IMG/VR virus record: IMGVR_UViG_2565956727_000003
Span: 1 to 36,978 of that record
DNA length: 36,978 nucleotides
Direction: 5' to 3' (one strand)
From: a virus
Lineage: Duplodnaviria > Heunggongvirae > Uroviricota > Caudoviricetes
Shown: one piece after another, positions 30,701-33,700 of the stretch
Layout: every line of letters starts with the position of its first letter
Position numbering within the stretch: the stretch's first letter is position 1
Program-made: the position numbers

Positions 30701-33700
30701 AGCTTTCACGTACCACTCAGGCTGTTTTTCTATTTTCCAGTGATGCTTACCCACGATTAGCCTCATCGTTCTGTGGTTTCTGTTAATCGATTTATCCATT
30801 AGATTTTTCATAAAGCTCAGGTTTAAATGGCAACCGTCCGCAAGTTCTATATGCAGCTTCTGCTGCACGTCCTTTTGGAATTAACTGGCCCGGACGGTTT
30901 CGCCACTGATAAACGGCTTCAGTTGTTATGCCGAAAAAAGCAGCAACTTTCTCAATACTGCCGAAGTAGCTTTCGATATCGTCAGTTGTCATACGCCCTC
31001 CAAACTAAGTTTTGTTAGATGCTAATTACAAATCTATCTTTGGTCAATAAAAACTAAGATTACTTAGCAATTAAAGAAATGGTGCTCCTATGGAAACGGT
31101 TGGTCAGCGTATAAAAGCTCTGAGAAGAGTTACCAGAACGTCCCAGAAAGAATTGGGTAAATTTTGTGGAGTAAGCGACGTTGCTGTGGGGTACTGGGAG
31201 AAAGACATCAATACCCCTGGTGGGGAGGCACTTTCGAAATTAGCGAAGTTCTTCAATACGTCAATAGATTACATTCTTTATGGTGCTGAGTTTGAAGGCA
31301 AACTCGTCACAAACATGCGCAGAGTTCCTGTAATATCGTGGGTTCAGGCTGGGCAGTTTACTGAGTGCAGGGCAGCAGAAGTGTTTAGTGAAGTGGACAA
31401 GTGGGTAGATACATCATTAAAGGTTGGTGATAACTCATTTGCATTAGAGGTTAAAGGTGACTCCATGACTAACCCTAATGGCCTCCCAACAATACCAGAA
31501 GGCGCAACAGTGATTGTAGATCCAGATGCAGAACCTCGTCATGGAAAAATAGTCATCGCTCGACTTGATGGAACAAACGAAGCTACAGTAAAAAAATTAG
31601 TCATCGATGGCCCTCAAAAGTTTTTAGTGCCATTAAATCCTCGGTATCCCAACATCCCTATCAATGGTAATTGCCTTATCATTGGTGTAGTCAAAGGAGT
31701 TCAATACGAACTCTAAGACCTCTCTTCTCTAACTAAGGCACCGAACTAAGAAAAGTTTGGTGTTTTCTCTTGCCATAATAACTAAGTTAAGTTAGATTTT
31801 ATATCAAAGATAACGAACAGGCAGGACGCTCACGAAGTAGCCGCCTGGGGCATATGAAGTCCACGATGATTCGTTAGCAACAAAAAAGCGCCCTACAGGA
31901 CGCTTAGCTCTTTAACAATCTGGTCCCCATCAACAAGTAACTGATAACTTGAGGAGGTGTGAAATGCACAAAACAGAACCCAAAATCGTCGCGCCTGGCT
32001 ACACAGATGAGGAAATTTACGAGTGGATGACAAAGAAGCTGGCAGCCATAAACCAGCTTCGTGAATTGCTGTCTTATCGACAGGAAACAATAGGCTCCTT
32101 AAAAAAACTGGATCAGGAAATCACTGTTTTATCACAGGATGCTACTTTAGATATTGTGCAGACAAATTAGGATCCCATTCATTTTCGTCAAAATCATCAA
32201 AGTGATGAATTTGTGATCTCCAGTCTCGATAATCTAAAAATTTCTGGGCGGTTACGCTTATTTTATCAAGCGTGAGTTCATCCTGAATTGAAAGAAGAAG
32301 TTCATCAAATTTCATCTCATTAATCTGTTTTGGCATCCAGTGATGCTTCATCAGAATAAGGTGAACCAGAGCCTTTTTCCCATTCAACTGATTATAGGGA
32401 GTGCCGAATTTCTTCCGGTGCTCATGCAAGACAAGATCCAGAAGAGTAAGTAATGTTGCCCTTGATTCCACTTTACTTATTTCGACTGATGACACTACCC
32501 CACTGATTTCAATGCCCCGATACTTTCCAACATTTTCACAGTGGGATTTGTACAGCGTATAGATATTACCGGACATTTCTTTTCCTTTTGCGTTGTTGGG
32601 GATAACCAGATTAACCGAATCCTTGTTGTTGGGGAATAACCAGGTCCACCTCGCCTGATGTGGCTAAAAGCAGGCACATAACAGCTAAGTATTTTCAACC
32701 AGAGAGAATCCTTAGCGTTGTGGTGAATGCGGCTCAGCGCACGCGGGTTAAGGTTGAGGCTGACAGTCGACCTTCTGTGGATACCCACCCGCCTGGTGTG
32801 CAACCTTCGCCAGGCACCGGGAGGCACCCGGCACCACAACTTTATGCTGTGTGTAGTCTTGGCGGTACCAGCTTGTACCCTTGCTTCCGGCTGGTACCGT
32901 CCTTTTTACAAAACAGAGAAGAGCATCACCGGACGACGGGCTCATAACCCAATCCATCCGGGCGGCAGTCACCGCAGGTGTTCTTCTCTGTTTTGTGGAG
33001 AAACTAACCGACCTTGCAGGGTCGATATGATGAGGAGCAGCAAAATGGCTAGCGAACGCAGTACTGATGTGCAGGCATTTATCGGGGAGCTGGACGGCGG
33101 CGTATTTGAAACCAAAATCGGCGCAGTTCTCAGTGAAGTCGCTTCCGGTGTGATGAACACGAAAACCAAAGGTAAGGTCTCGCTCAACCTAGAAATCGAA
33201 CCGTTTGATGAGAACCGAGTGAAAATCAAACACAAACTCTCATATGTTCGCCCGACTAACCGCGGGAAAATTTCCGAAGAAGACACCACCGAAACGCCGA
33301 TGTATGTCAATCGCGGTGGTCGCCTGACTATTCTGCAGGAAGACCAGGGACAATTACTGACTCTTGCCGGTGGACCTGACGGAAAACTCCGCACAGCAGG
33401 TCGTTAATATCGTTTTTAATAAACTGATTATTCATCTTATCACTGAATATCTTTATATAGTGAGGACTTATTATGTCTCAGAACTTAGACGCAACCGCAA
33501 TTAATCAAATCCATGCCCTTATTTCTGCTCAGGGTGTTAATGAAATTATCAGTAAGATTGGTGCCGATGCTGTGGCATTGCCTGAGAATTTCCGCATTCA
33601 TGATCTGGAAAAATTTAATTTAAATCGCTTCCGTTTCCGTGGTGCGCTTTCCACTGCCAGCATCGATGACTTTACCCGTTATTCTAAAGATCTTGCAGAT

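Follow-up and report, generated by a model that had tools for sequence, protein, structure and literature searches.

The immunity region of a prophage stretch of 36,978 bp (IMG/VR record IMGVR_UViG_2565956727_000003, positions 1 to 36,978; hereafter the window) raises the question of which DNA sites its repressor reads, and whether these sites belong to a lysis-lysogeny switch of a known type. The window is an Escherichia coli prophage whose head genes are of the HK97 type; it also has a contractile tail, and its integrase adjoins yejO/narP. A cro-like gene starting at 30992 on the minus strand and a cI-like gene starting at 31090 on the plus strand are divergent and bound exactly the 97-bp gap (30993–31089) that was described in the initial annotation. 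The sequence evidence makes it very likely that this locus is a homologue of the P22 immC and phage 21 imm regions that differs from them in operator specificity, and that it acts as the immunity switch of an SOS-inducible E. coli prophage.

The gap contains two palindromic 15-mers at the places claimed for them, ACTAAGTTTTGTTAG at 31004–31018 and ACTAAGATTACTTAG at 31053–31067, separated by 49 bp from start to start. The whole window was scanned for ACTAAGNNNNNTTAG (ACTAAG-N5-TTAG), with the expectation taken from 100 dinucleotide-preserving shuffles of the 36,978 bp, and three matches were obtained against 0.02 expected, a number reached by none of the shuffles. The third match was located at 31781–31795, downstream of cI, and all three adjoin this gene. 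The bare hexamer ACTAAG showed no enrichment across the window (7 copies against 9.4 expected), yet five of the seven copies lie within 31004–31786, and the significance is in this clustering and in the palindromic pairing, not in hexamer abundance. A search for CTAAG-N4-CTTAG with up to two mismatches gave five matches in the window, four of which flank cI, adding a site at 31746–31759. In a 40.8-kb stretch of E. coli chromosome with an identical module, CTAAG-N5-TTAG was found solely at these three sites (0.16 expected).

An operator scoring matrix was built from 45 sites in 16 loci, all outside E. coli, and applied to the roughly 37,000 positions of the window. The top four matches were, in descending order, the sites here named OL1, OR1, OR3 and OL2 for the left (OL) and right (OR) operators of the switch (Table 1); their scores range from 27.3 to 14.8 bits, and the next best position in the window scores 5.1. 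The window sites read A-A-C-T-A-A-G, an A/T-only tetranucleotide and then C/G-T-T-A-G, and the centres of the four strong sites are TTTT, ATTA, AAAA and TTAA. The palindromic nature of the proposed 15-bp operator was retained while its length was not: an 18-bp AACTAAG-N4-CTTAGnT built around a 14-bp core is the more fitting description. The number of operators was also revised, as the two palindromes of the gap were correct and two further sites, a candidate OR2 and OL2, had been missed. The reported recurrence of ACTAAG downstream of cI was borne out in the form of two full sites, OL1 and OL2, rather than as a half-site alone.

The predicted repressor CI was compared with P22 C2 using BLASTP, giving 47% identity across 205 amino acids (E 5e-66); the identity with phage 21 cI was 48.8%. 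The N-terminal 65 residues match the chains of the P22 C2 N-terminal domain in the operator co-crystals 2r1j and 3jxb (E 5e-10), and the C-terminal domain matches residues 101–229 of lambda CI (E 5e-28). In the alignments, Ala87-Gly88 falls at the autocleavage site of the lambda and P22 repressors, and Ser125 and Lys168 fall at their Ser-Lys dyad (VQA87-G88QF, GDS125M and VK168KL with lambda VQAGMF, GNSM and FK192KL), and the prophage is therefore expected to be SOS-inducible; by analogy, induction would be RecA-dependent. The Cro protein of the window is 30% identical to P22 Cro (E 4e-9), and its closest solved structure is that of N15 Cro (PDB 2hin).

Conservation of the module was measured with a 1,251-bp immunity-region query, of which 69–100% was aligned in each phage. 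The DNA identity was 94.6–99.5% in the Escherichia phages vB_EcoM-689R6, vB_EcoS-569R4, Kati and mEp460_4F5 and 77% in LLS, and the operators are identical in all five. The records of these phages annotate 'repressor protein cI', 'Cro repressor' or 'hypothetical protein' and contain no operator or promoter features. Of 5,426 complete E. coli genomes, 517 (about 9.5%) carry the module. Protein relatives with 82–91% identity were found in Citrobacter, Salmonella, Enterobacter, Klebsiella, Raoultella, Kluyvera and Leclercia, and a scan of one genome per species gave 79 loci. In LLS the flanking leader has diverged, but the operators, the promoter hexamers and the AATAAAA lying between the -35 and OR3 are retained. 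Sites and hexamers are likewise kept within diverged flanks in Enterobacter, Kosakonia, Kluyvera, Rahnella, Serratia, Yersinia, Rouxiella, Providencia and Proteus, and the sites and the hexamers of both early promoters are conserved down to 64% CI identity. A 98%-identical fragment of the E. coli-type CI on a 369-bp, very-low-coverage contig of a Bacillales assembly (Fredinandcohnia humi, locus L021) is almost certainly contamination of that assembly.

The recognition helices (helix 3) of CI and Cro were compared with the half-sites across 30 Enterobacterales loci, which fell into three classes. In class A (Enterobacter to Proteus, CI identity 64–90%) the CI helix is GVSDVAVGYWEKD (GYW), the Cro helix contains EAVYQW and the operator is CTAAG-N4-CTTAG. 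Class B (Photorhabdus and Xenorhabdus, 41–46%) has GVSHVAISQWEKE (SQW) in CI, AAVSQW in Cro and TTTAAG-N4-CTTAA, and resembles P22 (C2 SNVAISQW, Cro DAAVSQW). Class C (Morganella and Proteus, 41–43%) has GVNRVTVTGWEKGD (TGW) in CI, PSVSGW or PSVCGW in Cro and TGTA(A/G)G-N4-CCTACA. The geometry is constant over the classes, with a half-site ending AAG or AGG and a 4-bp A/T centre, and the outer bases vary with both recognition helices, as expected if both proteins read the sites. Gene families, conservation and this co-variation of helix and half-site all support the earlier proposal of one repressor for both early promoters, and fit its action, together with Cro, at the divergent pair of rightward early promoter (PR) and maintenance promoter (PRM) and at the leftward early promoter (PL).

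A consensus scan revealed exactly two divergent early promoters adjoining the sites, PR on the minus strand and PL on the plus strand. The TTGACC-N17-TAGCAT promoter of the initial annotation, here PR, stands as a consensus match, while the overlap ascribed to the two palindromes does not: the left 15-mer abuts the -10 and covers the predicted PR start (approximately 31012) without overlapping the hexamers, the full 18-bp OR1 reaching 2 bp into the -10, and the right site is 6 bp upstream of the -35. Among the relatives the PR -35 (GGTCAA on the other strand) is invariant and the -10 is TAGCAT, TAACAT or TAATAT, always TAnnAT. OR1 is conserved in LLS and 14 further loci and has the register of P22 OR1.

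OR3 is located upstream of the PR -35 and encloses a candidate PRM -10, TAAGAT. It is invariant in the window, mEp460 and LLS, and all 15 loci keep OR1 and OR3 49 bp apart. The OR3 centre begins with AT, giving TAAGAT, in all 16 class A loci outside E. coli, compared to one of 29 other sites; TAAGAT is also found at the place of OR3 in P22 and class B, and TAGGAT in class C. Following the P22 register, PRM would start at approximately 31066, giving a 24-nt leader with a Shine-Dalgarno sequence GGTG at 31081–31084. The stretch from OR3 to the cI ATG in class A is unconserved, 22–38 nt long and contains only Shine-Dalgarno-like purine runs. Because this stretch varies in both sequence and length, PRM would lie at or upstream of OR3, and a promoter downstream of OR3 was rejected. 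The overlap with a maintenance promoter suggested by the initial annotation appears sound, the -10 being best placed, by analogy with P22, inside the cI-proximal operator.

A candidate weak OR2 aligns with P22 OR2 and is separated from its neighbours OR1 and OR3 by 24 and 25 bp, respectively. In 13 of 15 loci every other position between the two outer operators scores below offset 24, and scores at this offset are 7–13 bits in Enterobacter, Kosakonia, Yersinia and Rahnella, with the upper value in Rahnella (TACTAATCTTTATTAGGT). When the spacers between the operators were shuffled, the observed OR2 score was equalled in 0–0.02 of trials in 14 loci and in 0.07 of trials in one. A full operator in the PR spacer at the register of OL1 was also considered; it would have five core mismatches, and the weak site at offset 24 was preferred. 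The poor -35 of the candidate PRM falls inside this putative OR2, a placement that would suit activation by repressor bound there. On balance a weak, cooperativity-dependent OR2 is somewhat favoured, and the right operator is probably tripartite as in P22.

Downstream of cI, the 14-bp core of OL1 is identical in the window, mEp460, LLS and nine further loci, from Enterobacter (L004, L005 and L020), Kosakonia (L006 and L008), Kluyvera (L007), Rahnella (L010 and L023) and Serratia sp. Ag1 (L022). OL2 is separated from OL1 by 36 bp; its position is conserved, with a canonical CTAAG-N4-NTTAG in Yersinia, Providencia and Proteus, and the PL -35 in relatives is TTGACC or TTGACA. The isolated ACTAAG beside OL2 was examined as a third OL site and rejected, as it has no right half, has a GC-rich centre and overlaps OL2; it is lost in mEp460 (CCAAAA), shifted in LLS and outside the top 25 matrix matches. 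Three canonical OL sites are present downstream of cI in Providencia (L017, 2654–2727) and Proteus (L018 and L019), the third lying downstream of the PL -10, as OR1 does at PR; the E. coli-type module has two. A distance of 777 bp separates OR1 from OL1.

The P22-like arrangement with three right operators was weighed against a simpler one in which only the two strong palindromes are bound. The middle would then be the PR core promoter, CI at OR1 would block PR, CI or Cro at OR3 would block PRM, OR2 would contribute neither cooperativity nor activation, and PRM would become active once PR stopped competing for polymerase. Such competition is plausible, since a polymerase bound at PR would extend over all 97 bp of the gap, and the middle site is faint: three of its ten core positions are mismatched in the window, its score (Table 1) becomes negative or near zero in Rouxiella and Providencia, and its right end overlaps the conserved -35, so that the score is inflated in part by the G of that hexamer. 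The recurrence of offset 24 was moreover counted in related loci, which are not independent trials. It is nonetheless the favoured offset in nearly all of these loci, reaches higher scores in four genera and coincides with P22 OR2; the invariant 49-bp spacing is as expected if three sites must fit, and the C-terminal domain of CI corresponds by homology to the part of lambda CI responsible for cooperativity. The two-operator arrangement is for these reasons regarded as unlikely. Besides the weakness of OR2, other points weigh against a switch built wholly on the P22 plan. The putative PRM has no recognisable -35 (ATCTAT, 31032–31037) and was not called by the promoter scan, and a second weak plus-strand candidate is present (TTGTTA at 31012–31017, N17, TATCTT at 31035–31040), although the essential A of its -10 is lost in Kosakonia and Proteus, leaving it a weak alternative to the promoter at OR3. 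The gene in the cII position is of the 186/CP76 type and not P22 C1, and the P22 establishment circuit is therefore not transferable; the distance from OR3 to the ATG is also unlike that in P22 (22 nt and a Shine-Dalgarno sequence compared to none), so that translational control of cI would differ. The searchable literature gave no binding, footprinting or transcript-mapping data for the module.

The identity of the protein at the palindromes was considered in the same way. If they were bound only by Cro or by another factor, CI would read something else, and the co-variation alone cannot separate the two proteins, since Cro helix 3 also changes with the half-site. The CI N-terminal domain, however, has as its homologue the P22 C2 domain that was crystallised with DNA of this very operator geometry, and there is no further repeated motif in the gap. 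A weaker point in the same direction is that Serratia aquatilis and Rouxiella keep the CTAAG sites and the CI helix, with no P22_Cro-type gene found upstream of cI by a script limited to ATG-initiated open reading frames of at least 50 amino acids, without Pfam or other start codons. A role for Cro or another factor to the exclusion of CI is accordingly very improbable. The slightest chance is given to the palindromes being compositional repeats of an AT-rich promoter region, or an RNA hairpin, with no protein bound. The region is indeed AT-rich and the sites overlap the -10-like TAGATT and TAAGAT, but the excess of matches over the shuffled expectation, the ranking of the four sites at the top of the window by an independently trained matrix, and the change of the half-site alongside the repressor recognition helix all contradict a chance origin. 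RNA structure in the gap was tested and rejected, as the minimum free energy of -12.6 kcal/mol did not differ from that of shuffled sequences (z = -0.24), and an Rfam scan of 30000–33500 gave nothing in the gap, its only matches being a small RNA (sRNA) resembling STnc100 and a weak DicF-like match further downstream.

In the favoured P22-type switch, CI dimers would bind the two-fold symmetric 18-bp AACTAAG-N4-CTTAGnT by contacting the outer CTAAG and not the four central A/T base pairs. CI on OR1, over the PR start, with cooperative binding to the weak OR2 over the PR spacer and -35, would switch off PR, and with it cro, the cII-like gene and replication. As OR3 would hold the PRM -10, CI at high concentration or Cro at this site would switch off cI. 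PL would be switched off by CI bound to two sites, OL1 overlying its spacer and -10 and OL2 lying ahead of its -35. RecA-stimulated self-cleavage at Ala87-Gly88 through Ser125 and Lys168 would inactivate CI, after which Cro would act on the same sites, presumably at OR3 first. Binding of CI and Cro, cooperativity, the sequence in which the operators fill, activation by repressor at OR2 and looping, if any, between OL and OR are proposed by analogy with the known switches.

Table 1. Features of the immunity region in window coordinates. Scores in bits for operators are from the operator matrix.
Feature	Position	Strand	Sequence	Basis or remark
cII-like gene (YmfL / Phage_CP76 family), next in PR operon	30197–30754	-		Pfam Phage_CP76, E 1e-13; 'protein YmfL' in the Prokaryotic Genome Annotation Pipeline (PGAP)
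cro-like gene, 66 amino acids	30792–30992	-		Pfam P22_Cro, 42.8 bits (cutoff 30.2)
OR1	31003–31020		AACTAAGTTTTGTTAGAT (core 31005–31018)	24.4 bits, second best in window
PR, cro promoter	31019–31047	-	-35 TTGACC 31047–31042, N17, -10 TAGCAT 31024–31019	Promoter scan 9/12
Candidate weak OR2	31027–31044		TACAAATCTATCTTTGGT (core CAAAT-CTAT-CTTTG, 3 mismatches)	2.4 bits, rank 9 of ~37,000
OR3	31052–31069		AACTAAGATTACTTAGCA (core 31054–31067, perfect CTAAG-N4-CTTAG)	21.8 bits
Candidate PRM -10	31055–31060	+	TAAGAT	Register of the annotated P22 PRM -10
cI repressor gene, 208 amino acids	31090–31716	+		Pfam HTH_3 and Peptidase_S24, above gathering cutoff
Isolated half-site	31732–31737	+	ACTAAG	Probably non-functional
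OL2, ends 8 bp upstream of PL -35	31744–31761		AACTAAGAAAAGTTTGGT	2 core mismatches; 14.8 bits, fourth best
PL	31770–31798	+	-35 TTGCCA 31770–31775, N17, -10 TAGATT 31793–31798	Promoter scan 9/12
OL1, in PL spacer, overlapping -10	31780–31797		AACTAAGTTAAGTTAGAT	27.3 bits, best in window

The gene in the cII position belongs to the phage-186 CII / YmfL (Phage_CP76) family and not to the lambda CII / P22 C1 type, and the module is therefore mosaic. It is followed by genes for a DUF4222 protein and for a helix-turn-helix protein resembling a replication initiator. In the gap between cro and the cII-like gene, 30769–30805 on the plus strand carries a direct repeat TTCTGT-GGT-TTCTGT, a 16-bp spacer and TAGATT facing cI, which could be an establishment promoter (PRE); a cross-genus alignment of these positions was uninformative. 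Another gene, annotated by PGAP as a 'LexA family transcriptional regulator' of 108 amino acids, lies at approximately 27843–28169 on the minus strand, in a nin-like region between a methyltransferase remnant and rusA.

On the left side, the PL leader CAGGCAGGACGCTCACGAAGTAGCC (31828–31852, plus strand) resembles the start of the P22 early-left transcript, CAGCAGGACGCTGGTAGCC, and is kept in loci of Kluyvera, Kosakonia and Yersinia despite differing flanks. A boxA, AGCTCTTTAACAA at 31906–31918 (plus strand), has one mismatch to the rrn/P22-type TGCTCTTTAACAA and is the sole such match in the window; it is approximately 100 nt past the predicted PL start, directly after a minus-strand terminator hairpin at 31905–31886. 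Neither a boxB hairpin nor an open reading frame for an arginine-rich N/gp24-like protein was recognised beside this boxA after PL, and no second, nutR-type boxA was found after cro. A gene of 144 amino acids (32142–32576, minus strand; PGAP 'ECs1072 family phage-associated protein', no Pfam match) lies between PL and yfdP-yfdQ-yfdR, convergent with PL, with minus-strand terminators at 32060–32035 and 31905–31886. This gene is present in 689R6 and absent from mEp460_4F5 and LLS, and is therefore considered moron-like. The STnc100-like match, to the Rfam model of a prophage-associated gammaproteobacterial sRNA, spans 32687–32910 on the plus strand over the full model length, with 43.4 bits (gathering threshold 47, E 2e-7). 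The weak DicF-like match at 32848–32902 overlaps it, in the early-left region upstream of yfdP.

No description of this operator type came up in literature searches on mEp460, on the operator strings themselves or on ACTAAG in the context of operators, repressors or prophages; the one ACTAAG match in a phage-repressor paper was vector flank. The operator is, as judged from the sequence, a new, uncharacterised specificity within the very well known P22/21 repressor-operator family. In mechanism the switch is textbook and leaves the understanding of lysis and lysogeny unchanged. What the analysis supplies are operator and promoter coordinates for the immunity type of about one in ten complete E. 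coli genomes and of relatives in Citrobacter, Salmonella, Enterobacter, Klebsiella, Yersinia and Proteus that are annotated only as 'LexA family protein' or 'Cro/CI family transcriptional regulator'. It also gives a simple motif for typing prophage immunity groups, and the co-variation series of CI, Cro and operator forms a natural data set for DNA-recognition specificity on the P22 repressor scaffold. There is about an even chance that the module represents a natural re-specification of the P22 repressor/Cro/operator triad, in which the change from T to C at position 3 is read by a tyrosine in both helices 3 (CI Gly34-Tyr35, Cro Tyr-Gln), that the SQW/TTAAG and TGW/GTA(A/G)G types line up with it as a graded series, and that it constitutes a major unnamed immunity group of the Enterobacterales prophages. 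In that case a recognition code for this helix-turn-helix family and the route of heteroimmunity evolution would be readable from the series.

When the predicted switch is compared with that of lambda, the likeness is in the overall plan, with a tripartite OR between divergent PR and PRM, OL at PL, cooperative CI dimers and RecA-induced autocleavage, all of which would be shared by analogy. The operators of lambda are 17 bp long, of the TATCACCGC type, and neither they nor the N-terminal domain of its repressor are related in sequence to those of the window. The OL–OR distance is 2.4 kb in lambda and about 0.75 kb here, and the Cro of the window is of the all-alpha P22/N15 type instead of having the lambda Cro fold.

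The resemblance to P22, and to phage 21, is much more detailed. Common to all are the divergent c2/cI and cro genes and 18-bp operators whose contacted half-sites are 7 bp long and end in AAG, with four A/T base pairs left uncontacted, and P22 shares the Ala-Gly cleavage site, the Ser/Lys dyad and a poor PRM -35 (AGGAAT in P22). In the annotated P22 genome (BK000583) OR1–OR3 form a 66-bp block directly upstream of c2, compared to 67 bp here, with OR1 ATTAAAGAACACTTAAAT, OR2 ACTAAAGGAATCTTTAGT and OR3 ATTTAAGATGACTTAACT. The centre spacings are 23 and 25 bp in P22 and, with the candidate OR2, 24 and 25 bp here, giving OR1–OR3 distances of 48 and 49 bp. P22 PR (TTGACT-N16-GATAAT) runs through OR2 and OR1 and, as in the window, overlaps OR1 by 2 bp at its -10. 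The P22 PRM (promoter 31673–31701, 5' nucleotide 31667) has its -10, TAAGAT, inside OR3 in the same register, and the 5' end of the RM transcript is just past OR3. A multiple alignment placed the window, LLS, Yersinia, Proteus, Photorhabdus and P22 in register with TAAGAT and the GTCAA of the PR -35 invariant. At the left operator OL1 overlies the spacer and -10 of PL in both systems, with OL2 placed 8 bp ahead of the -35; the two sites are 36 bp apart here and 35 bp apart in P22.

Several features set the two apart. The candidate OR2 of the window is much more degenerate, there are two OL sites where P22 immC has OL1–3, and OR3 is followed by a 22-nt leader with a Shine-Dalgarno sequence. In P22 and class B the operator abuts the ATG, giving a nearly leaderless cI mRNA, and the P22 PRM starts 4 nt upstream of the ATG. 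The window also differs in having a Phage_CP76/YmfL-type gene where P22 has C1, no homologue of gene 24 or N after PL, and a contractile tail rather than a podovirus tail. Further differences are in recognition. The P22 operator consensus, ATTTAAGATATCTTAAAT, is contacted at positions 2–7 and 12–17, with the four central A/T-rich base pairs uncontacted (PMC5175364, PMC4267663), and a change from T to C at position 3 lowers binding of the P22 repressor to non-specific levels (PMC4267663). The half-site of the window is A(A/G/T)CTAAG instead of ATTTAAG, the main change being T to C at this position, and helix 3 is DVAVGYW instead of NVAISQW in C2. Val33, the C2 residue packed against the methyl groups of TTAA, is retained in the form of Val31, while Asn32, Ser36 and Gln37 are replaced by Asp30, Gly34 and Tyr35. 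Because the P22 repressor loses specific binding on a C at position 3, the immunities of the window and P22 should not cross-react, and the prophage would be heteroimmune with both P22 and phage 21. The switch is thus predicted to be a member of the same P22 c2 / phage 21 family that belongs to a different immunity group.

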